From: Octopus sinensis
Lineage: Eukaryota
Assembly (NCBI RefSeq): GCF_006345805.1
Contig: NC_043013.1
Span: 13,702,001-13,766,000, forward strand
Direction: 5' to 3'
DNA: 64,000 bases
Below, one piece after another: positions 23,418 to 57,260 of this stretch. A program made the translations under genes and the position numbers. The notes beneath the pieces are model-generated. The model saw nothing but the letters and a program-made list of their open reading frames with translations, was not told the origin of the DNA and made no database searches. Every line of letters starts with the position of its first letter. Within the stretch, counting starts at the first letter, position 1.

Positions 23418-23466
23418 ACTAGAACTTCAAGAAATGGCTGAGGTATCTGGTCAGAAAACCAAACAA
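23418..23466 (+). CDS. Host mini-exon B1, 49 nt, phase 2 to 0 (LELQEMAEVSGQKTKQ)
   Basis: ttttgcag|...CAA|gtaagc. Only one frame is open, and it joins C1 in frame. Confidence 0.75.
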
Positions 23467-23938
23467 GTAAGCTTTTTTTTTAATCTTAAAATATGCTTGA
23501 ATAGTTCTGAATTGTGATGGATTATTTCTTGAGAATTTCATCAAAGGATTTGCTTAAAACGAACGCTGTATATTCTGTTTATGAATAATTTCATATATAT
23601 TCTCACATTGATACGACTGGTTGCTATCTTTTATACTGGTAGACCAAGCTATTATTTTTCAGACTGGTAGAGCCATCTGCAATTTGTGAAGAAGGTAGAA
23701 CTCTATTGTATCTCTTTTTGGTAGATCCAGCTACTAAATTCTATATATTTACTCTAGGCTTCCATTTTGTTATATTATTACAGTCAGTGTAGTGGTTTTC
23801 ATTTTAATATCACTGGGGACAATTTTTAATATTAGAAAAACCAGCTTCTATATATCATATTATTAGAGATGGAAAGAATCATCGTATCATAAGTTAAACC
23901 AGTAGAGCCAGTTTCTAATTTCCCCATATATATATATG

Positions 23939-23977
<39 letters not shown>

Positions 23978-25283
23978 GCATATGTATATATATATATATA
24001 TGTATGCATATGTATATATATATATAAATATATATATATATATGTGTGTGTGTGTGTAACATATGGTATAATTATAAACAGGGCAAAGTTTAGGCATTTC
24101 TCCACAGATTGAAAAAAATATAATGAACAACCTTAATTGATTTTCAACCCTTGTTGCGTTCTCATCAGAGGCGTCTACATTATTCTGACAGTCTCCAGGG
24201 GAGCAAGCAGCCAAACTGTTTATATACTCAGCAAATGCAGCAGTTACTCTATGTAAGAGTCCCTAATTTGCATACCGAAAGTATTCGACACTATAAGCAC
24301 CCGCGGCAAGTAAATGGGTATGTATGTATGTATGTATGTATATATACATATATATACATAGATAATACACACAATCATATGTGCACACGAACGTGTGTGT
24401 GCGTGTGTGTGTGTGTATGTTTGTGTGTGTGCGTGTGTGCGTGCGTGCGTGTGTGTGTTACACCGATCACAGAACTTTTGGCTTTATAGAAGAGAGTGAA
24501 TGTTGACCTCAGAACATGGAGGAGATTACATGGGATCAAAATGACCTGCGTTCTGGTGGCGATGAAGTTGTTAAAAGCGTATTTGGCATCGTCTTATTTT
24601 TTGAAGCATTTCTTACGCAAGAATATATGTCCGTTCTTCAATTGGGAAAATGTAGAATTAATATGTACACGCTTAAATAAACTTACATTAAATGATATTT
24701 ATATGGTCATCATAATTTTAGAAAAAAACCTTCTATAACTTATAGAACTATTTAATGTCTTTACTGTTTTCCTTCTTTGAATTTTAGGCTTTTGGAAGTC
24801 TTTTGATGATTTCAGGATGTGAACTTTATAATTCATTTATATATATATATAAATTGTGTTTCATATTGCATCTGATGATATTATTTTCCTAAAGATTTTA
24901 TTTAATTATGCCTAAATTAGTAAGATATTAAAAGGATCTGCACTGATATCATAAATAGTGGACTTCATAAAAATAAAATAGTTGTAAATACGATTTCAGA
25001 CCTTCATTTGAATTCAATGATGCTAACCATGTTGAAATCTCTAAAACTAAATTGAAAATAAAACTGTTTATATTTTATCTGTAAATGGATTTTTCTGTGT
25101 CTATATCCGTGTGTAGTTGTTAGACTTTTAGATGTGGTTATTCTTTGCCTATTGCTTACTACTGTTACTTATATACCTCCTCCTTCAAACATATATTTTA
25201 CTTAAAACATGTTTTCTATACCTAGAAATACTAACCCAAACGTTTCTTTCAACAATTAACATTGTTTTTCCTCTTTTCTCTAG

Positions 25284-25339
25284 CCTGAAACAAGAGAAAC
25301 ACAAATTCAACCGCCTATGGCATCGACATCTTTTGATAT
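25284..25339 (+). CDS. Host mini-exon C1, 56 nt, phase 0 to 2 (PETRETQIQPPMASTSFD)
   Basis: Long pyrimidine tract ctcttttctctag|...AT|gtaagt. B1+C1 = 105 nt, which preserves frame. Confidence 0.75.
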
Positions 25340-26146
25340 GTAAGTAGACAGACATTTCCAGATAAACTTTTTTCATCATATCGAAAGACCCACTAAATAC
25401 CTACATATCTCGATATCTGATCCTTACAGAATGTACCAATCTCTCATCCACGTTGCACCTCCTATATTTATCACGTATAACTCGTTGCATGTAAATTTAT
25501 TTATATGTAATTTGATAAGTATTTTTATATAAATTTCATATTTCTTCTATATTTCTATGTATGTTTGATTTCATTCTTTATAACCTTGGGGAATTTTCAC
25601 GCCTGTACATGCATGATTTATGTTGATATGTATAAATATATATGATCCAACTACTTCGATTGAAATTTCTCATTTATGCGTTCAGGAATCTGTTTGACTT
25701 CCTAAGACTTGCGTTTAAAATTTTCTCTACTCTGTATTTTTTCGCGTAGGCTCTCTATGAGCACTCCGTAAATAACCCATACATTTTAAAACATACTTAC
25801 ATACTTAATATATATACATATACCCATATATGTGTGGGGGTATTTATTTATTATAGACTTTCTACTTACTCCTTCTCTCTCTTGTATTCCCAGCCTTTCT
25901 TCTTTCCCTTCATCCCTTCCCTATTTTTCTTTGTCGTTCTCTCACCCTGCAGTCTTTCCCCTCTGCCTGCTGCTGTCGCGTGACCAACTGTCAGTACCCC
26001 TTTTTCTTCCCTTCTTACATTGGTCCCGTAGCTGAACAGTCGCAAATTTTCTGTCGCTATGTTCACCATCCTTCAAGACATTTTCTAAGCGTTACCTCCT
26101 CTCCTCGGTCCCAAGGCCCTATTTTGTTTGCGAAGTAGAAAACATA

Positions 26147-26300
26147 TTTAAATGATTAAATGTTCACAAAATTCAATAGTATCAGAAAATGATCGGTTAA
26201 GAATGTAAAAAATGTGGATCAATATGTTTAAATGATTAAATGTTCACAAAATTCAATAATATCAGAAAATGATGGGCGAAGTATATAAAAAATGTGGATC
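26147..26300. repeat. ~80-bp tandem duplication
   Basis: tttaaatgattaaatgttcacaaaattcaata...aaaaatgtggatc occurs twice. Confidence 0.9.
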
Positions 26301-26854
26301 GCCAAAAGTTCAGTCATACTGAGTTATGAGAGAAACAAATAAAGAAAGAAGAGAGTAAGCAAAAGGGATTTTGTTACAGTTTCTTTCATCTTGCATGTGA
26401 TTCTTTTTACCGTCGCGTAGAGGGTTTTTCGCCTGTAACGGACTGCTTTGGAATCCGTGTATCTATAATCTTTTCTGTGAAAGGATATAATTTTTGATTC
26501 GTTATAATTCTTATTCTTATTCTTTCTGGAGACCAAGTTTGACATTCTGCCTGGTTGTCTTGCCTGTGGGGAATGGTCATGAAACGTTCCTGTTGTTTGA
26601 TTCTCTTACCGAGTCAGTCTGTTTATTTTCTTGAGGGTCCAGTTCTGATCGGAGGTAAAATTTCATTGGTCTAGTGATAGGTTATTGCATGGTGATTTGG
26701 AGTTGCGGTTTCGAAAGCCGAAAGGAAGTTACATGCCGATCGGTTGAGATACTCCAACAGACAAAGTAGATTAAATATGCTCTGTTATTTGTGTGTGTGT
26801 GTTAATATTTTTATTTATGAAAAATAGTAATGGTAGTAAAATAAGGTGATGATA

Positions 26855-27045
26855 ATAATCCTTTCTACTGTAGGCACACGGTCTCGAATTTGTGGGGAAC
26901 AGATTAGTCGGTTACACTGACTCCAGTGTCTTTACTGGTACTTAATTTATCGACCCTCAAAAGGATGAAAAGCAAAGTCGACTCGGTGGAATTTGAACTC
27001 CGAACGAAGCGACGCGCTAGCGATTCTGCCAGTTCGCCGCCTAAA
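26855..27045 (-). mobile_element. SINE, second family
   Basis: Reverse-complement homolog of 14000-14215. Confidence 0.85.
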
Positions 27046-27177
27046 AGATAATAATAAAAGAAAGTATACAAAAATGTTAAAATATGAAATTTAATAAAAA
27101 TGAAAATGACTAATAGTAAATAATTAATATTGATAAAAATTAATAATTATAAAACTTAAAATATTCAGGCTAAGATA

Positions 27178-27500
27178 ATAGTAGTCTATAGTATAAGATG
27201 TATAGAGGGATGATGCAGTAACAAGACAACGACATACGTAGGGGAAACGGCACGAAGCATAGGAGAGCGGGTAAATGTACATTGTAGAGAACTTAAGGAG
27301 GGTAAAAGCTCATCGATTCTGTACCAACACGCCGAGCAGGAACACGGGGGATCAATCAACAACAGAGATGTTAAAATCTTGTCTACGCATAGAACAGATG
27401 CAACAATCAGACAAATTACGGAAGCTACACACATAATAGAAGATAAACCTAGCCTGAATAGGAAACTGGAATGGAACACTAGCACACACCACAACATATG
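27178..27500 (+). mobile_element. Penelope-like GIY-YIG endonuclease fragment
   Basis: IVVYSIRCIEG*CSNKTTTYVGETARSIGERVNVH...RQITEA...KPSLN. It is absent from the ORF track because of one internal TGA. Confidence 0.9.
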
Positions 27501-27829
27501 ACAGTAGAGGATCCCCATAAACTGGTTACAATATAAACAAAACCGAAAACATAATGAATAAAATACAGAGATAAATAAACAAATAGAAATAAATAACTAT
27601 ATAATCTCTTTATTAAATTGAAAAGATTTTTTTACACGAACGTATATAAACAGAAGATACAAATATTGCAGGCAATGGTGTAGTGGAGTATATAACGCTC
27701 ATTTCGACGGTGTTAAAACAACTTAATCATAGACAGGCAAGATAACTCACCCTCATTCCCATTTTGGAATGATGGATATCGGTGTTTCGCCATTTTTGTA
27801 GCTTTTCAACATTATATACCTGTCTGGGC

Positions 27830-28110
27830 GCGATGGCAAAACGATTTCTTCTACTAAGGCCTCGGACCGACCAAAGACTTGTGAGTGGACTTGGTAGAGG
27901 GAAACCAAAGGAAGACCGTCGTATATTATGTATATGTGTATGTGTGTGTCTTCGTGTCTGTATTTTTCCTTCCACTATCGTCTCACAACCGACGTTGGTG
28001 TGTTTACGTTCCCGTAACTTACCGGTTCGCGGATAGACCTATAGAATAAGTACCAGACTTACAAAGAATGAGTCCCGGAGTTGATTTCCTCAACTAAAAT
28101 TCCTTAAGGT
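27830..28110 (+). mobile_element. SINE (family of 43872-44280), partial
   Basis: ggcctcggaccgaccaaagacttgtgagtgga...caaccgacgttggtgtgtttacg...agaataagtaccagactta. Confidence 0.85.
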
Positions 28111-29559
28111 AGTCTTAAATAATGGAAATCCACCCCTCCAAAATATATAGATAATAGCAAAAATAAATTAGGGAAAATATGTAGTTGTATAAAAATCAAT
28201 TTATGCCCACTTGAAGGATTCTGTCTTCATAAAAATGTAGTATACGGATGTACAGTAGTATCAGATAAGTATCAGACTGGAACATATATAGTTAGTAATG
28301 TTGTATTTAAAAAAAAGTTATAGAACGCATTTAAATTCATTTACTAACATTAAATATAAAAATTCTACTACTCTACCCTCATATATACATAATTTAAGGA
28401 ATAAGAGCATATATACTAGCAAACGGCCTCCCCTATAATGCTATAGGTAACAAATGTACTTTATGCATTAGAGAATCATACATTATTCTAAAATATTGCA
28501 ATTCGGGCATATTAAATAAATTGTCTGATACCATTCATTCATGAACCCATAGATTTCACTCATCTTTCATGGAACTCTATAAGACGAGATACAAGGAATG
28601 AAGTATTTGGCAGTCCTGCTTCTTCTGCTATTAGTAATTGATTATTCTCGGAATTTATTGGAAAATCGATTGTGTTTTAAACTTCAACCATCATCCTACA
28701 TATATTGATAAAAATGATAAGACAGCGAAAGAATGAAAGAGACCTCGATATTATGTAAATAGAGGAGTGCCCCAGCATGGCCACAGCTCATGAGCTGAAA
28801 TTAGATAAAATAAAATAAATAAATAAAAAATGTAATATGTGGCAATTATTCGGTAGCTGTGATAAAACTCCGAGTTTCAGATGCCGAGGTGGAAATCTAC
28901 GCCGCCATCTCTTCAGTTATCCGGCCATCGGAAAAAATGCTATGAAAAACGACCGTTATACAAAGGGAAATTACTGTGTGAATGACCGTTAGTAAGACAA
29001 AAGAGCTATTTGAATGACCGCTAAGTGAGGGGAGGGAGTAAAAGTAAGAGGGTAAAAAGGTTCATAGTATTCGCGTAAGCGTGCATGTTCATACCTACAC
29101 ATGCGTGCCCGCACACCAATGTGCATGCGCCTAATAGTGGTTTTATCTCTAATATAATATAATATAATATATATATATATATATAATATTAGGGAGTACA
29201 ACTCCAAATTTACAGGGAAACATTCAATTTAGTATTAAATCAAATTTCACAATATAAGTATAAAGTATATATAAAATCATAAGCCTGCTGAACAAGCTGT
29301 GTGCTTTTGCAAAAACGCAAAAAATTAACGATAATAGTAATAATCTTAGTAGTTCGACTTACCTGGCCAGAAGCCTTCAACGAATTAAACCACTCAACGA
29401 TTGTTCTTTCACGGAGAAATTACGAATTAATTTTAATTCCAAGGCACAAGGCCCAAACACAGAGGGACACACATACACATGCGGGGATAAAAAAACACAT
29501 GAAAAGACGAATGAAAAGTGAAATAATTATAATGAAGATGATTTTGATAAACAGGCACA

Positions 29560-30955
29560 TCCCAGCCCCGCTCCGAGATGACCACGAGGTTATTCGTTCT
29601 TTTAGAACTTAAAATTTAAAAACTTTTACAAAGGTTCACAATTTTTAAAAATCAGTATGAACACAAAAGGATTTAACACTGTCTTATTTACAGTCTTTGA
29701 AACAGATGATACTCACCACTTTATCTTTTCTTTTATCTCCACAAATTCCACCACCGGGGTGCAAGGTTCAGCATCCACCTCAGTCCCCAGCGGATTCACA
29801 TCCGATGGAAAGACCTCCTTTAACGAGCTATACTTAGTGTTACCCATCAAGATAATCTTATGTTCTTGTCATAGCCTTCTTCTAAGTTCACCTTGACAGT
29901 CTCTTTCCATCTTGAAATATTTTTCTCTATTATTTGCGATGTCGTATATGTCACTAGGAAAAATTTGCTTCTGTGTGTTTCCTGTGCATTGTGACTGTGA
30001 CTCTGTGTTATTATGCTTTTGTAGTTCTGTGTTTTCTTGTGTTTGTCTGTCTAAGATTTTTTGTGCTTGTATGTCTGTATGATTGTGTGACTGTAAATCT
30101 GTGTGTTTCGTATGTGAGTCTGTGTTTTGGGGTATCTGTACTTCTGGGTTATCTTGTGTCTGTTTGTCTGCATCTCTGTTTTTCTGTATATCTGAATGTT
30201 TCTGTGTTTGTGAGTCTGACTGTTTGTGAAGTTTAACGACTTTGTGTTTCCTTGGAAATGTTGATTTTTCTCTGACACTCTTCTTAGGCGCTCCCACTGG
30301 TGAACTGTTTCTACTTGTCTTTCTTTTGCTTTATACTTGTTAGGATCCATTGTCGGCGGAGACATTCTCCTTTCTCTTTTCTTCGCCTTAACCTCCACAA
30401 ATTCATTCTCCTGGGTCATTTCTTCTCCTCTATTATATCTACAACTTCCAATAATCTAGGGCACTTTCTTTTTAAGTGCCTCCTCTCGCCGCATCCGTAA
30501 GATTTTGAAGACCTTACAGTCATCATTATCTTCAATTTGTATCCGTTTGGAAGCTCCGCTGTCTCTGGTATTTCCTCATAAAAATACTGATTCACTATAC
30601 AGTTCACTTCCACCCCGTAATTCCACCAATTCGAAAATTGGGTCCAGTTAAACCTAATTCTCTCCATATTTCGGTAGCCTCCTCTCTCACTTTCTGTAAA
30701 GATTGCTGCTATTATCCGTTCTGGTTCAGTCCACGGTGGGATTCTACCCACTCTAATTGTGACAACTCAAACGTCCTTACTACTGGGTATGCGTGTCTGA
30801 TTTCTTGCTGCCATTTCCGACACAAATATTACCGCAACAATCGCAAAATTCTTTTTTCTCTTGTAAAACATTCTTCTACATCCTCTTGTGGAGCATTTTC
30901 GAACTTACAATTTTCGTTCTTCAAAATTCTGTATAGAGCAGTTGTATACTGTCAA
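29560..30955 (-). mobile_element. Degenerate Gag/ORF1-like zinc-knuckle element, minus copy
   Basis: VGRIPPWTEPERII...ELPNGYKL...YGCGERRHLKRKCP is homologous to the plus copy. Low-complexity Q/T/H tail, no RT. Confidence 0.7.
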
Positions 30956-31104
30956 CTTAACGTGACAGTCCCATAAAGGGAATCACACCACCGCTATTTA
31001 GCCCTAGGAAGCATCAACGCTTCCTATGCCTAAATAGCGGTAGTGTGATTTCCTTTATGGGATACCATCACTGCTTATATCTCTCTGAGATATTTAGAAA
31101 TTTA

Positions 31105-31248
31105 ATCCTACGAGCTGACTGGCGCATGCACGATATATACGATATATACATGTATCGATATATACGTGTATAGGATATATTTACTTGTATATATACGATA
31201 CAATTATATATCGTATATATCGTGCATGCGCCAGTCAGCTCGTAGGAT
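31105..31248. repeat. Hairpin, 44-bp perfect arms around a TA-rich spacer
   Basis: atcctacgagctgactggcgcatgcacgatatatacgatatata and its reverse complement. Confidence 0.95.
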
Positions 31249-31457
31249 CGACTGGCTACGTCTGGCTAGCGCGGACGCGCGTCTGCGTGTGTGCGCAAAC
31301 TGGGACCACTCTGCGATACAAGTACCTATGTTTACAAGGTCTAGACAAGTATCTGCAGCTAGCAAATCATGCTACTCCATGTTTTTGTTGTTTTTTGAGA
31401 GAAGCTAATCGAAGATGCGTGCGAAGCCGACGTTTGGTGGTAAAAGAAAAATTTGAA

Positions 31458-32790
31458 ATGAAGAGCTACGCGGAAGACCCGGAAAAGGAAAAATTAAGAA
31501 GCCTAACACCGAAGTCGTTGAATTGTGACCCTGAAAAGATGAAGAGATACATGAGCAAAGTAGGAAGAGAAGCAACGAATGTGAAGCTTATAATGTCGGA
31601 GGAGAAAAAGAAAATGTTAAGGAATTCAACAATAGTATACAGAACATTCTCCAACGAATCCAGGAGGATTGAAATAGCACCTGAATTTCAAATAGAAGCA
31701 ATGGTATAGTGCTGTATGGATAGAGTGGTTTTTATAAATAGAGGAAGCCAATACGGCAAGGTAAATGTTATATTTGAAAATGTGGAGGCGGCAAAGAGGA
31801 ACGACCAAGTGATAGAAGGAAATAGGTGGACTCTCATACCCGACAAACCAGGAAAATGGTAGTGAAAATTAGAGTTGGAAGAATCCCACCCATAATAGAG
31901 CCTGAATGGGTAATAGTGGGAATCTTCAGAGAGTATTTGAAGAGAGGAAATACAAAGTTGAACGTACTAACAGTGAGCAAAACAATGCTTGAATTTTGGG
32001 GGTTATGAAATTGAATTACCGACCGGTGAAAAGTTAGATATTGTGCTGCAGGGAAGACCCCCAAAATGCTACTTGTGTGGCATGAGGGGGCATATGCGAA
32101 GGAAATGCCCGAATACAGAAGTAGAGAAAAGGTTGGAAACAACGGTGGAAGAAAAAGCAGCCGACGAAGTGAAGAGGGGGAACAATAATAGAACGAATAT
32201 GGTGAAGAGCAGGAAGAGAGAACGTAAAAAGTCACCAACTTTAAAAGAAACGAAAAAAGTAAAGGAATAGCAGAGAATATAACATATCAGAACGGTAACA
32301 CTGAAGAACCAACTATAGAAGAGATAGAGAGAGCGATGGAACTGCAAAACGAAGACGAAACAGAGCGAGAAAATCTAGAGTTCTTTAAGCTCAAAGATAA
32401 AGAAGAACAGATGGAAGAGAAGTATTTGAAAAACTCAACAACTTTAGAAGAAACGGAAACGGATAGAGGAATGGCAGAGAATATTACTTAGAATGGTAAC
32501 ACTGAGGAACCAACTATAGAAGAGATATTGAGAGCGATGGAACTGCAAAACGAAGAAGTATATGGCGAGGAAATCTAAAGTTGTTTAAGCTCAAAGATAA
32601 AGAAGAACAGATAGAAGAGACGTATTTGCAGCCGGGAGAAATTACAGATACACAAACGGAGGAAGATGTGAACGAAGCGGTAGACTCGAGAAGGAGAACA
32701 CAAGAAAAGAAAGAGAACGAGAGGAAGAAGAAATGTCGTGTAAAGAATAAATGTGGTGAAAAAACACAGACGGTAATATAATTACGAGCG
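31458..32790 (+). mobile_element. Frameshifted Gag/ORF1-like ORF with CCHC zinc knuckle and charged tail
   Basis: KCYLCGMRGHMRRKCP (CX2CX4HX4C), VGRIPPIIEPEWVI, an E/K-rich C-terminus and an internal ~200 bp duplication (32250-32430 / 32450-32630). Confidence 0.75.
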
Positions 32791-33206
32791 TAATGCAATT
32801 AATGTTTAAAAAGAACTGTGAATTGAACTGCAAATGAACTGAGAATTGAACTTGTGTTTTGTGAAATTGTAAAGAAAAGAAAAAATGTAATACTTGGAAA
32901 AAAAAAGATAAAATAGAAAAGGAAAATAGAAAGACTAATGTGAACAATTAATGATACATTTTATACGATAATGATACGAAGACCATTGTGGTTTCGCTTC
33001 ACAGTGAGACACGATGGTATTGAGAATTAATGTGAAAAGTTCACAGTTCGTCTCGCAGCGGAAGCAAGTCGAACCGTCTCATTCTCATTATTTGTTAATC
33101 ATTCCATCAATCATACATCATTTGTTTTATGTTCCCGTTTGTCTTGTTATGTCCCCTTTATATAATCAAGCCATTGTGCCTATAATAAAGAAAGAAGCCA
33201 TGCTAC

Positions 33207-33248
33207 TCCAGACTGATGACGAGCAAGACTCAGAAACCTGTCTCTGGA
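33207..33248 (+). ncRNA. Type I hammerhead ribozyme motif
   Basis: TCCAGA-CTGATGA-c-GAG-caaga-CTC-a-GAAAC-ct-GTC-TCTGGA. It has a 6-bp stem I, an intact core and a GUC site, with a C.A mismatch at the base of stem II. Confidence 0.8.
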
Positions 33249-33338
33249 TGCATGCTTGGCTGGAGGGGGGTGCTTGTCTCCCCCATGTAAACATAAGGAC
33301 ACAGGAAATGTGTCAAGACCGAGAGGAAGCGTGGATGA

Positions 33339-33460
33339 TTCCTAGGGCTAAATAGCGGTGGTGTGATTCCCTTTATGGGACTGTCACGTTAAGTTGGCAA
33401 TATACAGCTGCTCTATCGTACCACCACTGCTTATATCTCTGAGATATTTAGAAATTTAAA
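33339..33460 (+). repeat. Terminal repeat A (direct copy 31021-31105, inverted copy 30933-31010)
   Basis: ttcctagggctaaatagcggtggtgtgattccctttatggga...gagatatttagaaatttaa. Confidence 0.9.
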
Positions 33461-34402
33461 AGTTCTGTATGTTATCGTCCTATTTCTTATTACAGCGCGC
33501 TCTCGCTCTGGAAGAGACAGCTTTACATTTGACCCCTCCCTCTTAATCAAACTTCCACATTTCTTCATCAGTCCCGAGTCGGGAAAGAATACATTCTGCT
33601 TCAGTACACTCGGGTCAACACACGTTCGACCCTCTGTTCATTCAGCATAACTTTTCATTTTCTCAACGACTCACAACCACCAAACGAATAGTGGCTTTTC
33701 ACAAAAAGGACCGCTGCAAAGCAGCACACAAAAGCACAACCGTTCACGCCAAAACTTTCAGCAGAAATGAAACACGTACCAAAAAAGGAGAAATTACGAA
33801 TGACTTTTATTTCGACCACAAGGACGAAACACAGAGGGACAATACAAAATGAAATGCGGGGTCTACGTAAGCGAATGGTATTTACGTAATGAATTTGAAA
33901 ATTTTACGGAAATATATCGAATGAGGGGACGAACAAAGCAAAGTACTGATGGAGTGGGGGAACGGTTATGACCCCGCAGAACGCGTTCCTCTACTGAAAC
34001 CTTTTTTGTTAACCTTTTATGGACACACTCATGTAGGATCTTTCATTCCCAACACGCATACCACTTGCTTCCATCTTTTCTCATACGTGTCCGATGTTCA
34101 TAAAGTTGGTTTCTCTGTGTACACAACCAGAATATCCCATTTGATACTTATCAACCATAGACCGGAAACACAGTTTATCCAACCCTACCTGGTACATATA
34201 TTTTCAAGTACCCGATTCTATGTGAATCCTTATTTTCCCTTTGTCTTCATTTTCTCTTGGATTTTACTCTGTCTCCTGTATCTGAAAAAGACCTTTGCTC
34301 GAAACGTAAAACACCCTTTCTTTCCTTCCTTCTGTGAGCGTCTTATTAACAATTTGCATGTACCATGTTGTTGTTTTTCTTAACTTTTTTGCCCGTTTTT
34401 TA

Positions 34403-34445
<43 letters not shown>

Positions 34446-34493
34446 CATACAGACACACATACACTCATATATATATATACGTATTTATGTATG

Positions 34494-34548
<55 letters not shown>

Positions 34549-34956
34549 GTATGCATGTATATATGTATGAGAATAGAATCATTTTTAAGGTATCAATTGC
34601 TTCTGTTAAGTTTAATTTCTCCACCTTTTCTGCCATTTTCAGCATATTTCTATTTTCCTCTTTGAAGAATTGCCTCTTTCTGAATTCTCTCTTAATTTCT
34701 TAGCTTCCTTTGATCTTTGTTTATCTCTCAGCCTTCATCACTAACTAAATCAATCCTTCTGTGCATAACTTTTCACCTGCCATTTTATTCCTTAAACCTG
34801 GTTTTCTTTTCCATAGTCTCGATTTCTTTCTATGCATAACACAACTTTTCTATTCGACGTTCACAGTTAAAGATAAAGACTTAAATATTCATCTTTATAC
34901 ACATCATGACAATTAATTTTACTAACCTGGAATTTTACAATTTATTGATTTTGCAG

Positions 34957-35005
34957 ACCAGAGCGTCAAGAAATGGCTCAGGTATATTGTCAGAAACCCA
35001 AACAA
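34957..35005 (+). CDS. Host mini-exon B2, 49 nt (PERQEMAQVYCQKPKQ)
   Basis: Same splice sites and phase as B1. C1 AT + A gives ATA (Ile), keeping the frame. Confidence 0.75.
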
Positions 35006-35790: not shown

Positions 35791-35849
<59 letters not shown>

Positions 35850-36226: not shown

Positions 36227-36304
<78 letters not shown>

Positions 36305-43462: not shown

Positions 43463-43497
<35 letters not shown>

Positions 43498-43572: not shown

Positions 43573-43606
<34 letters not shown>

Positions 43607-45050: not shown

Positions 45051-45948
45051 ATGGCAAGAAACTGGTCTGCGAGAGAGGTGCAATTGTTCGTCCGCGCTTG
45101 GTAGATTGCTGAAGACGACTCGCCGAACAATATTATTGCAGCGGCGCTGAAAAGCAACAATTTTTCGAGAACCACCGCCCAGATAGAGCGAAAGAAGCGA
45201 GAATTTATCCGTTCGTACGCTCTAATCAGGCAACATGTAGACACCCTGGACATCATCCTAGGAGGTGACGGCACCAGGGAAGGCCAAAAGGATGAAGGAA
45301 AACATCCAGGACCAAACGGAGAAACCTAGAACACAGGGAAACAATGACACATGTCCAGCTCCCAACACCACAACTGAAGACCAAAGAGGTGCGATGGCCG
45401 CAAGAAAAGAAAAGCACCCTAAAATTGATGGGAAACAGGAGGTAAAAGGCGACAAAATCAAAATCAAAGCTAAAAGAAACCCTGTCCAGAGAAAACAAAA
45501 GGACCCCAGCAAGAACTATAAGGGCAAAGAAAGAAACATCTGCAAATTCTACCTGAGGGGGGACTGCTGGTACGGCGTCGAAGGTGCAAACTGTCGCTTT
45601 GCACATCGGAGGCCCTACCAAAACCGCACGGACGCGAGACAGAGGTCCCTCCCTCAGGGAGAACAAAAAGAAAAAGTTAAAAGAAGGGAAAAAAGCGCAC
45701 TGACCACTACTGAAAGACGGTATGCAGATGTGGTGCGCGGAAACCCAACAGGTGGCCAGGTTCACCCAGACGTGAGAAGGGCGGCAGCTGAACAGCAATC
45801 TTTTTTGTGCATGGCACAAAAAATTGTTCAGCAGCTGACCTGGCTACAAGCACAAAGCTGGAACTACCACCACATAAGGCCACCTCCAACGGATGCAGGA
45901 TGGCCACCACAGACACCAACACACACACCACAAAAATATTTCTACTGA
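45051..45948 (+). pseudogene. LINE ORF1: N-terminal Myb/SANT-like region plus CCCH zinc finger (one stop, one frameshift)
   Basis: MARNWSAREVQLFVRAW*...IAAALKSNNFSRTTAQIERKKREFIRSY, then CKFYLRGDCWYGVEGANCRFAH at 45541-45606. Confidence 0.7.
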
Positions 45949-48899
45949 ATGTAGGAGGGCTGCTGCGCGGAAACTGTAAAAAGAAAATTTCATTCCTGAG
46001 AGACCTTGTGACATGCAATCAAGCTATATGCATGGCACTCACAGAAACGCATCTTGAACCCGATATAGGTGATGCAGAAATACACATGCCGCAATATGCA
46101 GTCATACGCACAGATAGAAAAGGGAGGAGCCATGGTGGAGTTGCAATGTACATCCGAGATGACCTCACGCCCCACGTCCTGCTGTCATATTCAAACTCAG
46201 TATGTGAAACTCAAATTGTACACATAAGGCAACTGAATATCGTCATATGCACTACATATCGCCCACCAGATGCCCCAAAACACTCAGGCATGTTTGAAGA
46301 CTGCCTAACAAAAATAGGAGAAGTCCTCACCAACCTTGAACAGCACAACAGTGTATTCTTCATGGGTGACTTTAACCTCCCCAATGTGGAATGGCCTGGG
46401 GGGCAGATGCTCCCAGGGATGACACACCATCAGCAGACACAGGTGGAGTCCCTGCTCCATCTCACAAATGCCTCTTTCATGGAGCAAATAGTTCTGCAAC
46501 CAACAAGGGCAGATAATATACTGGATCTCTGCTTCACTAACAATATGGATATTATCCATAATGTTAATGTGATGCCGACAATGATCTCGGATCACAACAT
46601 AATAGAGCTGTCTATGTATGGAAGAAAAGCCCCCGTAGACACACAGCCTATACGAAGCACCCACCATCTCTCCAACTTAAACTTTCATAAAGCCAACTGG
46701 AAGTTGATTGAGAAAGAGATCCTCAAACAGGATTGGCCTGAATGTCTCTCCACACCGGACATAAACATGAAACACAAACACTTCATGTCCATAATACAAG
46801 CCATATGTGACAAATATGTCCCAGTGTGCAGGGCCAGCACACACAAGAACAAAAACAGGATCCCTAGAGAAAGGAGGATTCTTATGAGACGACGGACAAG
46901 GATTGCAAACCGCCTGAGCAAGCACACCAAAAGTGGTGAGAAGTCTCGGCTCGACAGAATGCTACTGGAAACTGAGAAAAGTCTACATCACTCCCATGAA
47001 AAGGAGAGAGCAGATAAAGAAGCTTGGGTAACAGAAAATATAAAATCAAACCCTAAAGCTTTCTTTAAGTTTGCCAAAGAGACAGCCACAGTGCACCAGG
47101 GAATAGGACCTCTCTTCCAAAAAGATGGCTCTCTCACAGGAAATCCCACGAGGATAAGTGAAATACTGAACGAACAGTTCCCAAGTGTGTTCACTACACC
47201 TCTAGGACACAGGCAAGTAAACAACCCAGAAGAATTCTTTGCCACTTTACCTGCGGCCAAAGAGACAAAAATTGAGTACATCAACATCGAAGCTGATGAT
47301 ATCACACGAGCCATAGATGAGATTGACACAAATCAGCTGCTGGACCTGATGGATTCCCAGCGATCCTTCTCAAATCGTGCAAACGAGCCCTTGCAAAACC
47401 GCTACAGCTTCTTTTCCAGAGCTTTCTTGCAAGTGGTAAGCTCCCAGTCAAATTGAAAGAGGGGTTAAATGCCCTATCCATAGGGGAGGTAGCAGAGCAG
47501 ATGCTAAAAATTATAGGCCTATCTCTCTGACCTCACACATCAGCAAAGTCATGGAACGAATAGTCCGTAAGAAACTAATCATGTTCCTTGAAGAAAATGA
47601 CTTGCTGTCTGACACCCAGCATGGATTTCGACCAGGTAGAGGCTGCCTAACACAGCTCCTGCAACACTATGACTGGGTGTTGAAACAGCTACAATGGCTC
47701 AAATGTGGATGTAATATATCTCGACTTTGCAAAAGCCTTTGATAAAGTCGACCATGGTATGATCTGTCACAAAACTGCGTGGTCTCGGCATAGGCGGGAA
47801 ACTTGGAGAGTGGCTGCACAACTTCCTAAAAGACAGAAAACAGGCAGTTGTGAGCAATGGAGCCCCTCCAAGGAAACGCAAATAACAAGCGGTGTCCCAC
47901 AGGGCACTGTCTTGGGGCCACTGATGTTCATAGTGGCCCTTTCAGACATGCCTTCAGTTGCTACGATGACCACCCTTGCTAGCTATGCAGATGACACAAA
48001 AGTCTCCCACGCAATACAAACCCTGAAAATATTGCGCATCTGCAACATGAGCTGGACACAATATACAGGTGGGCTGAGGACAACAACATGCAGTTTAATG
48101 CAGGTAAGTTCCAGGCCCTGCGCTACTGGCACACAAAGGTAAATGACGTGAAGACTGGATACACTGGCCCAGGAAGAATTGCAATCCCTGAGTCAAAATC
48201 AGTGCGTGACCTGGGCATTGACATGAGCAATGATGCATCTTTCCAAATGCATATTGCTAATCTGGTGATAAAATGCAGCCGTCTAGCTGGATGGATTCTC
48301 CGAACCTTCAGAACAAGAGAGAAGGAGACACTGATGGTCCTATGGAAAACATTCGTCCTCAGCCGCTTGGACTACTGCTCCCAACTTTGGTCACCACACA
48401 ATATAAAACTAACAACAGAACTCGAAGCAATTCAGAGAAACACACAAAGAAAATCGTCTCAATGCAAAATATCAGCTACTGGGAAAGACTGAAGGTATTA
48501 AACCTCTTCTCCCTAGAGCGTGGGCGGGAGAGATATGCGGTGATATACATCTGGAAAATCCTGGAGGGTCTTGTCCCAAACTTTGGCATTCAAAGTTACT
48601 CCAACCGCAGAACGGGGCGCCACTGCATGGTGCCAAGGATTCCAACATCACCATCAAAATACAGGTCCAGATACTGCAACAGCTTGGGTTTCAGAGGACC
48701 ACAGCTCTTTAACATCCTCCCTAAATGCCTGAGAGACACACATGGTGTGGATGTGGGTTTCTTTAAAACTAAACTGGATCTCTTCTTGTCGAGAATCCCA
48801 GATGAGCCTACCTCACGACAGGAGACGCGGATGCGGGCATCAGCATCGAACTCCCTTGTTGATCAAGTGCCACGTATCAGAGGTGGATTCACAAATTAG
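45900..48899 (+). pseudogene. LINE ORF2: APE endonuclease + reverse transcriptase, several frameshifts
   Basis: LTETHL, YRPP, MGDFNLP, LDLCF, SDHN, YLDFAKAFDKVDH, GVPQGTVLGP, YADDTK, LDYCSQLWSP. Confidence 0.95.
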
Positions 48900-49191
48900 T
48901 GTAGCTCATTCAGCGGTGGTGCCCCAGCATGGCCGCGGCCTTCGGGCTAAAACATTTTTAAGGATTTAAGGATTTATATATTATTTATATGTATGTATAT
49001 ATATATATATATATATGTATGTATATATATATATATGTATGTATATATATATATGTGTATGTATATATATATATATTGTATGTATAATATGTATGTATAT
49101 ATATAAATGTATGTTATATATATATGTATGTATATATATATATGTATGTAAATATATATATATATATGTATGTGTGTATATATATGTATGT

Positions 49192-49245
<54 letters not shown>

Positions 49246-49341
49246 ATGTATGTATATATATAATATATGTATCTATATATATATATATACATATGTATGT
49301 ATATATATATATATGTATGTATATATATATATATATAATGC

Positions 49342-49379
<38 letters not shown>

Positions 49380-49524
49380 GTATATAATATGTATATATAT
49401 ATATGTATATATATATGTATATATTATGTATATATATAATGTAATATATATATGTATATATATATATATATGTATGTATATATATATATGTATGTATATA
49501 TGTATATATGTATGTATACATATG

Positions 49525-49568
<44 letters not shown>

Positions 49569-49609
49569 ATAAGATATAGATAAGAAAGTTTGTTTGGTAA
49601 GCACGTGAG

Positions 49610-49807
49610 TGAATATAAGAAAATAGTAAGAGTGAAAAACGACAGAAGGCTTAAATGTGAAAAAATATATATATTTGCGTCAAAATGTCTGGAGAATATT
49701 GGAAAAAATTTTTTTCCTTTCCTTAAATGCATAATTTTATAATTTTTAAGAATACCGGTTTCGCAGTTAGCTCTTCAAATTTCTTGTGACTTAATGTTAT
49801 ACATACA

Positions 49808-49845
<38 letters not shown>

Positions 49846-49951
49846 CATATATATACATACATTTATATATATCATATATACATATATATACATTATATAC
49901 ATATATACATATATATATATATACATACTATATATATATACATACATTTAA

Positions 49952-50005
<54 letters not shown>

Positions 50006-50350
50006 CATACATATATAATATACATACATATATATATATATACATACATATATATATACATATATATAATATATAAAATCCTTAATCCTTAAAAATGTTT
50101 AGCCCGAAGGCCCGCGCCATGCTGGGGGCACCACCGCTGAATGAGCTACACTATTAAAAATAAACATTAAGTCACAAGAAATTTGAAGAGCTAACTGCGA
50201 AACCGGTATTTCTTTAAAAATTATAAAATTTGTCATTTTAAAGAAAGGAAAAAAATTTTTCCAATATTCTCCAGACATTTTGACGCAAATATATATTTTT
50301 TTAACATTTAAGCCTTCTGTCGTTTTTTTCACTCTTTACTATGTTCTTAT
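49610..50350. repeat. Inverted repeat (49610-49797 / 50162-50350) with a hammerhead-like motif in each arm
   Basis: AAGAAA-t-tTGAAGA-GC-taact-GC-GAAA-CCGG-TA-TTTCTT at 50176-50214(+) and 49748-49785(-). The spacer holds a microsatellite and a CR1 3' tip (50077-50152, minus). Confidence 0.8.
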
Positions 50351-50361
50351 ATATATATACT

Positions 50362-50630
50362 CTCTTTACTCTTTTACTCTGTTACTTGTTTCAGTCATTT
50401 GATGCGCGCCATGCTGAGCAACACGCCTTTAGTCGAGCAAATCGACCCCGGGACTTATTCTCTTTGTAAGCCCAGTACTTATTCTATCGATCTCTTTTGC
50501 CGAACCGCTAAGTGACGGGGACGTAAACACACCAGCATCGGTTGTCAGCAATGCTAGGGGACAAACATAGACACACAATCACACCACCATTATATATATA
50601 TATATACGACAGGCTTCTTTCAGTTTCCGT
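50362..50630 (-). mobile_element. SINE, partial
   Basis: Reverse-complement homolog of 43872-44280. Confidence 0.88.
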
Positions 50631-50714
50631 CATATATATTATATATATGTATGTATATATATATTATATATATATATATATTTATGTATATATATATATA
50701 CGTATGTATATATA

Positions 50715-51120
50715 CTCTTTACTCTTTACTCTTTTACTTGTTTCAGTCATTTGACTGCGGCCATGCTGAAGTACCGCCTTTTTGTCGAGGAAATCGACCC
50801 CAGGACTTATTCTTTGTAAGCCTAGTACTTATCCTATCGTCTCTAAGTAACGGGGATGTAAACACACCAGCATCGGTTGTCAAGCGATGTTGGGGAGACA
50901 AACACAGATACACAAACGCACACACACACATATATATATATATACACATTTATATACGACGGGCGTCTTTCAGTTTCCGTCTACCAAATCCACTCACAAG
51001 GCTTTGGTTGGCCCGAGGCTATAGCAGAAGACACTTGCCCAAGGTGCCACGCAGTGGGACTGAACCCTTACCATGTGGTTGGTAAGCAAGCTACTTACCA
51101 CACAGCCACTCCTGCGCCTA
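50715..51120 (-). mobile_element. Full-length SINE
   Basis: Ends ...accacacagccactcctgcgcc, the reverse complement of the SINE head. Confidence 0.9.
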
Positions 51121-51779
51121 TATATATATGTATGTATATATATATATGTATGTATATATATATATGTATGTATATATATATATATATATGTATGTATATA
51201 TATATATATGTATGTATATATATATGTATGTATGTATATATATTATATATGTATGTATATATATATATATGTATGTATATATATATATGTATGTATATAT
51301 ATAATATATATATATGTTGTATATATATATATCTATATGTATGTTATATATATGTATGTATAATGTATGTATATATTATATATATGTATGTATATATATA
51401 TATGTATATATATATATATGTATGTATATATATATATATATGTAATATAATTATATAGTTTGTAATATATATATATGTATGTATATATATATAGATTTGT
51501 AATATATATATATGTATGTATATATATATTATATGTATGTATATATATAATATATGTATATATATATGTATATATATATATATATATATAGATGTAATAT
51601 ATAGATGTATGCATATATATATATATGTATTTGATTGATTGATTGATTGTTTGATGTATGTATATATATATATATATGTATATATATATAGTATGTATAT
51701 ATATATGTATGTATATAATATATATATATGTATGTATATATATATGTATGTATATATATATCTATATGTATATATATAA

Positions 51780-54443
51780 GGCAAATTGATGTTGTTGGTG
51801 TGTGCTACATACCGCCCTCCAGATGCCCCAAGCCATGTGGGCAAGTTGAAGACTGCCTTATAAAATAGAAGAAGTTCTAATCACATTAGAACAACACATA
51901 ATGTACTTCTTATGGGAGACTTCAATCTACCAATGTCAGATGGCCCGAGGGCCTTTCTCTCCCCGGGAATGACAAGATGTGAACGAGGCACAGGCGAGTC
52001 CCTCCTGAACCTCATCAACAACTGTACATGGAGCAGGTAATACTCCAACCAACCAGGGCATGTACACACTGGATCTCTGCTTCACAAATGACATGGATCT
52101 CATCCATAACGTGAAAGTGACACCGACACTACTCTCGGATCACAACATGGTAGAGCTGACCATGTACGGGCCAAAAGAGAGCACGGACATGCAGCCTACG
52201 AACCCTCAGAATCTTTCCAGCTTGAACTACCATAAGGCCAACCTGGAAACAAATTGAGAAGAGATCCTCAAACAAAACTGGCCTGAATGTCTCTCCTCGC
52301 CAGACATCGACGTGAAACTTCAACAATTCATGTCTGTAATGCAAGCCATATGCAACAATGCGTCCCAGAGAGAAAGGCCACTTTACACAAGAACAAAATC
52401 CCCAGAGAGAGGAAAATTTTAATGAGACGGCGTACACAAAATTTCAATCGCCTAAACAACAGATTGAAAGCAGTGAAAAGTCCCGCCTAAAAATAAAACT
52501 GTTGGAAATCGAAAAATGTCTGTAACTCTCCCATGAAAAAGAAGAGCAGACAAAGAAGCCTGGGCTATAGACAACATAAAATCTAACCCCACAGCTTTCT
52601 ACAGTATGCCAAAGAAACAGCTACGGTGCCTGTAAATAGGGCCACTCCTTGAAAAGGATGGCACACTCACAGGAAAACCAATGAGGGTAAGTGAAATACT
52701 GAATGAGCAATTCAAGAGTGTTTTCACTCCACCCTTGGGCATCTCCAAATCACCAATCCAACTGACTTCTTTACCACTGCAGATATAAAATCAGAGGTGG
52801 CGACGATAGACTACTCGATATAAAGGAAGACGATGTAATCAAGGCTATAGATGAAATGAAAACAGACTCAGCTGCTGGCCCCGATGGATTCCCGTCCCGG
52901 CATCCTCCTAAAACATGTAGAGAGTCCCTAGCAAGACCACTGCAGTTCCTCTTTCAGAGCTTCCTGCAGCTGGCAAACTTCCAAGAAAACTGAAGGAAGG
53001 GTAAATATGCCCCATTCATAAAGAGGTAGCAGCGGAGGCCAAGACTACAGACCTATCTCTCTGACCTCACACATCAGCAGGTCATGGAACGAATAGTCAG
53101 AAGGAAACTGATCACCTTCCTTGAAGAGAATGATCTGCTGCCCGACAACCCAACATGGTTCGACCAGGAGAAGCTGTTTAACTCAGCTCCTACAACACTA
53201 TGACTGGGTGCTGAAACGGCTGCTCAGCCACTCAAATGTGGAAGTGATATATCTCGACTGTGCCAAAGCCTTTGATAAAGTCGATCATGGAATGATATGT
53301 CAGAACCTGCGTGATCTCAACATAGTTGGAAAACTGGGAGAATGGCTTCATGAGTTTCTGAAAGATAGAAGTCAGGTGGTAGTAGCCACTTCCATTAACA
53401 CGCAAATAGTGAGCGGTGTTCCGCAAGGCACTGTTCTGGGACCACTACTGTTCATAATGGCCCTCTCAGACATGCCCTCAGCCACGCAGAGAGCCACGAT
53501 CACAAGTTATGCAGATGATACAAAAGTTTCACAGGCAATACAAAACCCTGAGGACACTAAACGCCTGCAATTTGAGCTGGACAAAATATACAAGTGGGCT
53601 GAAAAGAATAGCATGCAGTTCAATGCTGAAAAGTTTCAAGCTTTATACTATCAGTGCGTGATACCAATCAGTGCGTGACCTGGGTATTCACATGAGTGAT
53701 GACGCGACCTTTCATGTACATGTTGCTAAATTGGCAATGAAATGTAGACGGCTGGCTGGCTGGATTCTTAGAACCTTTAGAACAAGAGAACAAGAAACCA
53801 TGATGGTCCTCTGGAAGACACTTGTCCTAAGCCACTTTGACTATTGCTCTCAGCTATGGTCACCATCTAGTGTCAAGTTGATCACAGAACTTGAGGCGAT
53901 CCAACGAAGCTACACGAAGAAGATAGCCTCTGTGCAGCATATGACTACTGGGAAAGACTCAAGAGATTAAAGCTCTATTCTCTGGAGCGTAGGCGAGAAG
54001 ATATGCCATAGTATATATCTGGAAGATCCTGGAAGGACTTGTCCCGACTTTGGCATCGAGAGTCACACAATGCCAGAACCGGACGCCACTGCGTAGTACC
54101 AAGGACTCCAAATTTGCAATCAGATGTAGGACAAGATATTGTGATAGCCTGGGCTTCAGAGGCCCACAGCTCTTCAATATCCTCCCGAAGAACCTGAGGG
54201 ACCTGCATGGTGTAGATGCGGATTGTCTTTAAAGTAGGACTGGATCTCTTCCTGTCAGGTGTCCTGGATGAACCAACTTCACGGCAGAGGTGCAGATGAG
54301 GCAGCTGCAACGAACTCTCTCATGCATTAGATGGCGTTTTGCTAAAAAGCATCCGTGAGGTAAATCGTGTAGCAAACCAAATGGCGTGCCCCAGCATGGC
54401 CAGCTCATTAGCTGAAACTGGAAAATCAAATGAAAATCAAATC
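51780..54443 (+). mobile_element. CR1-type LINE, second subfamily, 5' truncated
   Basis: YRPP, GDFNL, YLDCAKAFDKVDH, GVPQGTVLGP, YADDTK. Tail ccccagcatggcc...gaaaatcaaat repeats into (TA)n. Confidence 0.95.
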
Positions 54444-54559
54444 ATATATATATATATATGTATGTATATATATATATGTATATATTATAATATGTATGTA
54501 TATATATATGTATGTATATATATATGTATATGTATGTATATATATATATATTATATATA

Positions 54560-54592
<33 letters not shown>

Positions 54593-54696
54593 TATGTTTG
54601 TATATATATATATGTATGTAATATATATATATCATTATATATATTTATATGTATGTATATATATATATGTATGTAATATATATATATATATATATA

Positions 54697-55625
54697 TCCT
54701 TAAATCCTTAAAATTGTTTTAGCCCGAAGGCCGCGCCATGCTGGGGCACCCACCGCTGAACGAGCTACACTAATTTGTGAATCCACCTCTGATACGTGGC
54801 ACTTTTATCAACAAGGGAGTTCGATGCTCCTGTCCGCATCCGCGTCTCCTGTCGTGAGGTAGGTTCATCTGGGACTCCCAACAAGAAGAGATCCAGTTAG
54901 TTTTCAAGAAACCCATATCCAACACCATGTATGTCTCTCAGGCATTTAGGGAGGATGTTAAAGAGCTGTGGTCCTCTGAAACCCAAGCTGTTGCAGTATC
55001 TGGACCTGTATTTTGATGGTGATGTGGAATCCTTGGCACCATGCAGTGGCGCCCCGTTCTGCGGTTGGGGTAACTTTGAATGCCAAAGTTTGGGACAAGA
55101 CCCTCCAGGATTTTTCAGATGTATATCACCGCATATCTCTCCCGCCTCCGCTCCAGGGAGAAGAGGTTTAATACCTTCAGTCTTTCCCAGTAGCTGATAT
55201 TTCGCATTGAGACGATTTTCTTTGTGTAGCTTCTCTGAATTGCTTCGAGTTCCGCTGTTAGTTTTATATTGTGTGGTGACCACAGTTGGAACCAGTAGTC
55301 CAAGCGGCTGAGGACGAATGTTTTCCATAGGACCATAAGTGTCTCCCTCTCTCTTGTTCTGAAAGTTCGGAGAATCCATCCAGCTAGCCGTCTGAATTTT
55401 ATCACCAGATTAGCAATATGCACTTGGAAATATGCATCATTGTTCATGTCAATGCCCAGGTCACGCACTGATTTTGACTCAGGGATTGCAATTCTTCCTG
55501 GGCCAGTGTATCAGTCTTCACGTCGTTTACCTTTGTGTGCCAGTAGCGCAGGGCCTGGAACTTACCTGCATTAAACTGCATGTTGTTGTCCTCAGCCCAC
55601 CTGTAATTGTGTCCAGCTCATGTTC
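54697..55625 (-). mobile_element. CR1-type LINE 3' fragment, same subfamily as 44395-48975
   Basis: Near-identical reverse complement of ~48045-48975. Confidence 0.95.
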
Positions 55626-55713
55626 GACACAATATGTATATATATATATATATATATATATGTATGAATATATATATATATGTATGTATATATATATATA
55701 TATATATATATTT

Positions 55714-55848
55714 ATTTATTATATAGAAGGAGCTTCTACAGGACTAGTACTGTTTTCATTCAAGAGAAATCTTCATGAAGCACTTCCTGAAGATTTCTCT
55801 TGAATGAAACAGTACTAGTCCTGTAGAAGCTCCTTCTATATAATAAAT
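55714..55848. repeat. Hairpin (~60 bp arms) carrying a hammerhead core (55787-55818)
   Basis: CTGAAGA-t-TTC-tctt-GAA-t-GAAAC-a-GTA-ctag. The 5' strand of stem I is lost at the hairpin centre. Confidence 0.85.
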
Positions 55849-55925
55849 TAATTTTACTCTGCTATGTATTGAGTACCTTACTTACTGTGGTTAACCCCGG
55901 ATCAACCCGGGACCTACATATATAT

Positions 55926-56007
<82 letters not shown>

Positions 56008-56249
56008 ACACACACTGTACTCCAGTCAGGTTTGCATTGTTGATGCCTATGTTATCTTCTGAGAATATAGATGCTTTTGTCACAAGAACTAATGCCCTAG
56101 TGTAGCGAGGAAGCGTTCATAATTGAATAGTATTTGTGCAAGAAACCTGCAATCATGGGTGAATTGAGAAAAATAAGAAGTTAGTTCCTGTTTAGATTGC
56201 ACAATCCTTGCAAAAGTTCTACAAATTTCATGTAAACTATTGTATAAAA

Positions 56250-57260
56250 ATATGTCCGTTTTTCAATTGTGAAAATGTACAGCTAAAATGTTCACGCTTA
56301 AATAAACTTACATTAAATGATATTTATATGTTCATCATAATTTAAAATGAAACTTTCTATAACTTATAAAGCTATTTAATGTCTTTACTGTTTTCCTTCT
56401 TTGAATTTTAGGCTTTGGGAGTCTTTTGATGATTTCAGGATGTGAACTTTATAATTCATGTATACATATATAAATTGTGTTTCATATTGCATCTGAGGAT
56501 ATTATTTTCCTAAAGATTTTATTTAATTATGCCTAAATTAGTAAGACATTAAAAGGATCTGCACTGATATCATAAATACTGAACTTCATAAAAATAAAAT
56601 AGTTGTAAATACGATTTCAGACCTTCATTTGAATTCAATGATGCTAACCATGTTGAAATCTCTAAAACTAAATTGAAAATAAAACTGCTTATCTTTTTTC
56701 TGTAAATGGATTTTTCTGTGTCTATATCCGTGTGTAGTTGTTAGACTTTTAGATGTGGTTATTCTTTGTCTCTTGCTTACTACTGTTACTTATATACCTC
56801 CTCCTTCAAACATATATTTTACTTAAAACTTGTTTTCTATACCTAGAAATACTAACCCAAACGTTTCTTTCAACAATTAACATTGTTTTTTCTCTTTTCT
56901 CTAGCCTCAAGCATCAGAAAGACTAATTCAACGGTATTTTAAACCGACATTTGTTTCGGATATGTAAGTAGACAGACATTTCCAGATAACTTTTCTTCAA
57001 CATATTGAAAGACCCACTAAGCACCTACATCTCTCGATAATTGATTCTTAAAGAAATTAAAATATTGATTTTTATCCTGAGGTATTTGGACAATTTCAGC
57101 AATAATGAAGTATACAATAAACCGCATCAAAACCACAATATCACTGGTATTTATATAAAATAAAAGTGATGGAGTGGAGTAGGTTCAATGTTGAAGGGAT
57201 GAACGCCTATAGAGGAGGGTTAAAAAGCAATATCTGGCAAGCATTTAATACAGCACCTTA
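56250..57260 (+). repeat. Segmental duplication copy 2, right part (contains exon C2)
   Basis: Collinear with 24625-25430 and, more distantly, with 15480-16250. Confidence 0.95.
56905..56963 (+). CDS. Host mini-exon C2, 59 nt (PQASERLIQRYFKPTFVSD)
   Basis: Same splice sites and phases as C1. It differs in length by exactly one codon. Confidence 0.75.

Follow-up and report, generated by a model that had tools for sequence, protein, structure and literature searches.

Repeated mini-exons probably encode a diversifying leader of a TRPM-like channel and its multi-SLOG paralogues in Octopus sinensis

Short repeated exons of two types, B and C, in the genome of Octopus sinensis probably encode the N-terminal leader of a TRPM-type channel and of paralogues with several SLOG domains, the C exons diversifying while gene conversion and duplication keep the introns alike. 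The exons lie in a stretch of 64,000 nt, hereafter the window (positions 13,702,001-13,766,000 of contig C17, NC_043013.1, in assembly G000, GCF_006345805.1); positions downstream of it are given in continued window numbering or as C17 coordinates. The gene itself is annotated, and its family is known.

A first-pass annotation of the sequence had picked out four plus-strand exons, B1 (23418-23466), C1 (25284-25339), B2 (34957-35005) and C2 (56905-56963), with lengths of 49, 56, 49 and 59 nt. We confirmed their positions, the AG/GT ends and the single open frame that they form when joined. Its proposed junctions stood in part: GT..AG joints in assembled contigs connect B1 to C1 (23466>25284; three contigs in run X2, two in run X6) and C1 to B2 (25339>34957; two contigs in X2, one in X6), whereas the B2-C2 junction comes from the RefSeq model only. 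Neither of the first two joints appeared in runs X1 and X8, so that two of the four aligned runs showed them. X2 and X6 stem from two studies with a guessed RNA origin (no run listed is on record as RNA, which speaks neither for nor against it), and because the runs were aligned at 88% likeness, transcripts of paralogues or near relatives may contribute to the joints. The length of B-type exons is 3n+1 (28, 46, 49 or 70 nt) and that of C-type exons 3n+2 (53, 56 or 59 nt), so that B/C pairs keep the frame; a 1-nt loss was seen in one of 15 C copies. An older C-type copy missing from the first-pass annotation, C0 (15889-15941, plus strand, 53 nt, phase 0 to 2), ends in TG in the window gene, so that a junction with B1 would create an in-frame TGA, which fits the position of the RefSeq start ATG (23434) inside B1. 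All three other C0 copies end in GG. In the window gene, C0 is thus likely part of the 5′ untranslated region.

The first-pass annotation had read the joined exons as an orphan repeat-module protein. This proved wrong, as residue for residue they correspond to the beginning of a TRPM-like channel model. Iterating a profile brought up an exon 10 kb beyond the window, which resembles the start of the TRPM region MHR1, and the next exon led to the protein P0009 (RefSeq XP_036366251, 'TRPM-like 2 isoform X2 [Octopus sinensis]'). Its residues 1-66 are encoded by B1-C1-B2-C2, with C1 supplying residues 12-30, B2 31-46 and C2 47-66. Starting inside B1, the model continues after C2 through the intron that leaves the window (56964-64000) to exon B3 (64945-64990), a conserved exon K (68805-68845), exon N, the first SLOG exon (73929-74013), further SLOG exons at 76450, 81509 and 85887, a second SLOG half from 157358, MHR3/4 and the channel, whose exons extend to C17:14,408,974. 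All these exons are on the plus strand. The window contains none of the gene's large coding exons, and its long open reading frames were judged by eye to be retroelement or microsatellite sequence. Retroelement-like fragments, likewise recognized by eye from translations, were seen at 1735-2883, 45792-48959 and 51805-55624 and fill much of the 22-kb intron between B2 and C2. Between C17:13,909,012 and 14,389,779, about 480 kb separate two consecutive matched channel exons.

The domain content of P0009 is that of the TRPM family. A SLOG domain (PF18139, E 9.5e-64) spans residues 122-376 and is joined by PF25508 (MHR3/4) and PF00520 (ion transport), the Pfam combination SLOG, TRPM2 and Ion_trans. 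The best PDB match is human TRPM2 (E 1e-143), and the alignment to it contains the TRP box. The Pfam scan gave no NUDIX match, and the model ends at residue 1087, which aligns with human residue 1186 of 1503. Of the residues Y295, R302 and R358, described in parts of PMC6759353 as ADP-ribose contacts of TRPM2 MHR1/2, P0009 has F/R/Q and the conserved paralogue P0021 F/R/R. The model thus departs from the ADP-ribose-gated TRPM2 type both in these contacts and in the C-terminal NUDT9H domain. A place in the beta-TRPM clade, with TRPM2/4/5/8, is putative: the top matches are TRPM2-like, and the O. bimaculoides counterpart is classed as TRPM-beta. RefSeq isoforms X1 to X4 join leader, SLOG and channel with compatible phases, the reads covering only B1-C1 and C1-B2; X4 skips C1 to B3, and isoform X5 has another first SLOG half.

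The leader is rich in Q, K, P, S, E and T; its share of order-promoting residues is 25%, against 36% for SLOG, and it is likely cytosolic and disordered. In TRPM channels, the N-terminal parts lie on the cytosolic side. The best 11-residue hydropathy within the first 100 residues is 0.62, without any signal-peptide-like stretch, which argues against a secreted toxin or gamete ligand.

For the C exons C1 and C2, the counts of the first-pass annotation, which had considered upstream flanks only, were right: besides one codon indel there are 16 substitutions among 56 nt, affecting 12 of the 18 codons, and 2 differences in 83 nt of upstream intron. Path averaging classified all 16 substitutions as nonsynonymous. 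However, this pair overstates the effect. Its upstream introns (24679-25283 and 56304-56904, 3.5% apart) have been homogenised across the C1 and C2 types, whereas 12 of 92 nt (13%) differ downstream before homology ends, and against this downstream flank the exon excess reaches only p=0.029. The downstream flank of C2 belongs to a lineage separate from that of C1. Upstream-intron distances correlate neither with exon distances (Spearman -0.03) nor with downstream distances (-0.21), indicating that the C1/C2 pair is a mosaic.

From the wider family, 14 C copies were compared; the near-identical C446 copy was dropped, three of the copies share identical exons, and so do C2 and its twin. The alignment holds 38 variant alleles in 55 exon columns vs 58 in 392 flank columns. 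Of the exon variants, 33 are nonsynonymous, 2 synonymous and 3 unclassified (split codon or gap edge; p=0.003 for the ratio of nonsynonymous to synonymous changes). The nonsynonymous rate is 0.82 per site, as compared to 0.147 for synonymous sites and 0.148 for the flanks (p=3e-12 vs flank), so that amino-acid change runs at about five times intron change. Five disjoint pairs gave the same picture with 37 differences in 289 exon sites (12.8%) vs 102 in 2998 flank sites (3.4%, p=2e-10) and 34 nonsynonymous to 2 synonymous changes, where about 75% nonsynonymous are expected (p=0.002). Taken singly, three of these pairs reach significance. A particularly clean pair is C2 and the copy at 13.047 Mb, which differ at 13 of 59 exon sites vs 18 of 598 flank sites, each flank being near 3%. 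Among 17 peptides, up to seven residues occur at one leader site. Gene conversion, which the first-pass annotation had itself set against selection, does act and inflates the C1/C2 contrast, but the excess persists where the flanks are about 3% apart. Two other explanations were rejected: constraint on the flanks, which match whole-block intron divergence of 2.9-3.9% (19-28 kb per comparison), and CpG hypermutation, as CpG transitions explain at most 5 of the 38 C variants. No 14-mer of C2 was found outside C2 and its twin in about 0.7 Mb examined. Taken together, these counts suggest that the C-type exons are likely under diversifying selection.

For the B exons, the counts of the first-pass annotation were equally accurate (7 of 49 nt, 6 of them nonsynonymous, and 4 of 77 upstream intron nt), but the positive selection that it had proposed for both exon types was supported for type C and not for type B. 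The flanks of B1 and B2 differ by about 6% on each side, and exon vs both flanks (51/825) gave p=0.037. Exon B3 showed an excess in nonsynonymous and synonymous changes alike, and exon K was invariant in three copies. The comparison of exon F was left unused because its flanks are non-homologous.

A second hypervariable patch, in a loop, lies at the 3′ end of exon N. Its three copies differ by 12 nonsynonymous and no synonymous changes vs 20 of 576 flank sites. Two copies, L100 and L098, differ at 11 of 85 exon sites (10 nonsynonymous) vs 2 of 529 flank sites (0.4%), and 10 of the 11 differences fall in the last 39 nt. Ligand-site positions differ among SLOG modules, and the GGAKNF loop reads GGREDI in P0009. 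Even in the channel, identity to O. vulgaris P0016 amounts to 82-91% (four of five segments aligned, orthology assumed) vs 99.7% between two species for the conserved neighbouring octopus paralogue.

Several observations weigh against selection on the leader, or against the gene structure on which it is read. Two of the five C pairs are singly non-significant (p=0.12 and 0.095), each C exon offers only about 14 synonymous sites, which makes synonymous divergence imprecise, and the C copies are not independent. Selection was judged by counting tests. Seven B copies with 8 nonsynonymous changes and 1 synonymous change (nonsynonymous rate 0.22 vs flank 0.15, p=0.2) show no significant excess, nor do the b70, C0, D and G exons. 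In exon N, pairs among L096, L097 and L098 differ by only 0-2 changes, L096 and L097 are identical in the patch, and the patch is nearly unchanged in O. bimaculoides. The patch of the window gene shares letters with modules 3 and 5, from either of which it may have been partly imported by micro-conversion. The disorder of the leader was judged from composition only, and the splice that connects module 1 with the channel half across 70 kb is annotated by the model only, with the orthology of P0016 assumed.

The window gene is part of a duplicated cluster. Matches to the B and C exons (10 and 17, respectively) lie on C17 and small contigs, and PF18139 matches are dense at C17:13.06-13.86 Mb. A segmental duplication unit covers 2962-64000 on the plus strand of the window (whole span 2.9-67.5 kb). 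Its inverted twin lies just upstream, at C17:13.56-13.63 Mb, and other copies occupy 12.75-12.83 and 8.80-8.86 Mb; intron divergence among the copies is 2.9-3.9%. The neighbouring paralogue models P0002, P0005 and P0014 contain three to four SLOG domains without a channel, and O. vulgaris P0016 has two SLOGs plus the channel. In a midpoint-rooted SLOG tree (n=27) without alpha, gamma or TRPS outgroups, the octopus modules form five clades, each with support of 100/99 or better and with at least two species per clade. The O. bimaculoides models XP_052830016/7 consist of the leader and modules 1-4a, and XP_052830018/9, with adjacent accessions, begin with 4b and the linker and continue through module 5 and MHR3/4 into the first part of the channel domain. 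Overlapping models of three octopuses thus suggest, by tiling, an ancestral five-SLOG channel, although no single model holds all parts. A search for longer proteins returned 10 matches, none from an octopus, and hence no five-SLOG channel model, which is weak evidence. In the window gene, the region 13.788-13.821 Mb showed no exons of modules 1b-4; the RefSeq model goes directly from module 1a to module 5b and passes over the linker and a frameshifted module 5a (about 119600-155500, plus strand).

Both the frameshifts in some copies and the varying number of units are in keeping with birth-and-death evolution. One-base frameshifts were located at C17:13,544,867, 13,540,586 and 13,849,290 and in L013, affecting SLOG exons of the inverted twin, module 5a and one C copy; they may be broken cassettes or assembly errors. 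At C17:12,752-12,788 kb (L049-L053), five tandem units of 8.85 kb lie on the minus strand, three of them nearly identical. O. vulgaris P0007 joins a leader matching these units to the SLOG gene on the plus strand at 13.05 Mb, which suggests that the region is inverted or its scaffold misoriented. Arrays of mutually exclusive C exons were rejected, since a 70-nt B-type exon stands between the C copies at 12.75-12.79 Mb.

Some features of the introns bear on the origin of the mini-exons. Introns upstream of C exons (window 25034-25283) resemble the intron upstream of exon N (C17:13,775,929-13,776,013; z 7-12), introns downstream of B exons (window 23467-23716) resemble the one downstream of exon N (z 4-15), and the mini-exons may derive from duplicates of this first SLOG exon. 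B-type flanks are also common to inter-module linker exons (C17:13,821-13,835 kb and 13,265-13,287 kb) and to sites at 26,204 and 26,306 kb, which adjoin other TRPM genes at 26.2-26.3 Mb; the mini-exon family therefore likely predates the leader. Near the probable 5′ end of the window gene, two adjacent near-perfect inverted repeats were observed (6919-7636 and 7640-8810), the first of 323 bp around an AT run and the second of about 570 bp around an AG run. Of each repeat, one arm is present in the paralogues at 12.8 and 8.85 Mb. A TATA-plus-ATG candidate at 8137 was discarded because the motif is on the opposite strand in both paralogues where it was found. Compact TRPM-like matches with most of SLOG in less than 1 kb and with internal stops, at C10696:17-20 kb and C6303:344, 929 and 953 kb, may be short-intron genes, retrocopies or foreign contigs.

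In the mechanism that we propose for the leader, the B exons, which run from phase 2 to 0, alternate with C exons of phase 0 to 2 and would form frame-neutral pairs, which unequal crossing-over could gain or lose and splicing could skip. Conversion and recent duplication would keep the introns similar. Selection would fix changes both in surface loops of SLOG and in the leader, and would counter the homogenisation of these parts, leaving narrow divergence peaks.

It is quite unlikely that the leader is free of selection and consists of old, unconstrained exons between introns homogenised by gene conversion. The uneven flanks of C1 and C2 and the neutral-like B exons would suit such a history, but in old neutral exons synonymous changes would be expected to accumulate proportionately, in conflict with the 34:2 ratio of the disjoint pairs. 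In several pairs, conversion would also have to cover both flanks and yet leave the 56-nt exon untouched, which in itself implies selection (compare parts of PMC3924837). An exon-limited import of diverged paralogues, or a local mutation process, is improbable as the source of the clustered differences. The likeness of the N patch to modules 3 and 5 and the 10 patch changes of L100 and L098 between flanks 0.4% apart are what an import would leave; against it stand the lack of a C2 donor in the 0.7 Mb, the scattered single-base nature of the C differences, a synonymous rate equal to the intron rate and the small share explained by CpG. A separate short orphan protein of B/C units alone, be it a toxin, a gamete protein or a secreted immune peptide, is highly improbable: among the matches listed, no SLOG exon stands beside the copies of the leader at 12.75 and 8.8 Mb (a lower bound), but RefSeq and O. 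vulgaris models (P0002, P0006-P0009) join leaders to SLOG, the leader is devoid of a hydrophobic signal stretch, and the isolated leaders have their counterparts in the leaders of O. vulgaris SLOG genes, suggesting assembly misplacement.

Provided that selection acts, host-pathogen conflict would be its likeliest driver, at somewhat less than an even chance, because of the analogy with the N-termini of CARD8 and NLRP1 and the birth-and-death pattern. The channel could then be a sensor gated by nucleotides or damage, and pathogen proteins would target its exposed cytosolic parts or be drawn to them as bait. It is rather doubtful that the locus has grown from an ancestral channel, with five different nucleotide-sensing SLOG modules before one pore, into an arms-race cluster, in which shuffled SLOG arrays and a hypervariable leader of mini-exons would provide a repertoire of pathogen sensors or decoys, as an animal counterpart of SLOG immune sensing coupled to a channel. 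With the same gene and the same selection, a sensory driver appears unlikely. Duplicated TRPM/SLOG genes would diversify in ligand or temperature sensitivity, and the leader would tune gating or partner binding. Mollusc TRPM families are indeed locally expanded and tied to heat stress, according to parts of 10.1101/2024.05.23.594666, and the differing ligand-site positions of the SLOG modules agree with this; in contrast, beta-TRPM expression, possibly of another paralogue, was unaltered by heat in two cephalopods (parts of PMC13402157). Also at odds with sensory tuning, the low-complexity leader has changed repeatedly at the same positions, and broken copies are present. Both traits are more typical of conflict genes.

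TRPM channels usually carry a single SLOG and are slow to evolve. In the openly searchable literature, covered through listings, the openings of abstracts and the papers cited here, we found no account of the multi-SLOG cluster, the mini-exon leader, its selection or a five-SLOG channel. A genome-wide survey of cephalopod TRP channels from 2026 lists one beta-TRPM for O. sinensis, and its main text contains neither 'SLOG', 'MHR', 'tandem' nor 'cluster' (PMC13402157), so that, as far as this part goes, the TRPM/SLOG cluster appears to have been overlooked; two TRPMs are mentioned in parts of PMC12919962. If the reading of a diversifying leader is true, tandem SLOG arrays together with variable mini-exon units and an amino-acid divergence several times that of the introns would constitute a new candidate repertoire of immune or sensory receptors in cephalopods, with the variable patches as directly testable sites.

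Among known systems, the closest by homology are the beta-TRPM or TRPM2-like channels. Human TRPM2 (PDB 6MIX) shares SLOG (MHR1/2), MHR3/4, the six-helix channel and the TRP box over residues 102-1084, and the window locus has module 5 and the linker in common with O. bimaculoides XP_052830018, which Table S1 of PMC13143021 lists as TRPM-beta. In contrast to TRPM2, the octopus channel has no NUDIX, altered ADP-ribose contacts, GGREDI for GGAKNF, an exon-repeat leader, and neighbours with three to four SLOGs. Exon 5 of the human red/green opsins and the RHD/RHCE pair resemble the C exons in their homogenised introns and exon divergence peaks at selected sites (parts of PMC3924837), whereas the octopus genes have many copies and many residues per site, diversifying instead of holding one fixed functional difference. 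The CARD8/NLRP1 tripwire places a positively selected, disordered N-terminus before a conserved signalling module (parts of PMC10249858), to which the octopus leader may correspond by analogy only; the octopus protein has neither FIIND nor CARD nor homology to them and would use a channel as effector. Finally, the molluscan TRPM hotspots (parts of Edsinger and Moroz, 2024) share the local tandem TRPM expansion; these are, however, whole-gene expansions, chiefly in heat-stressed bivalves, in contrast to the SLOG arrays and exon-level selection considered here.

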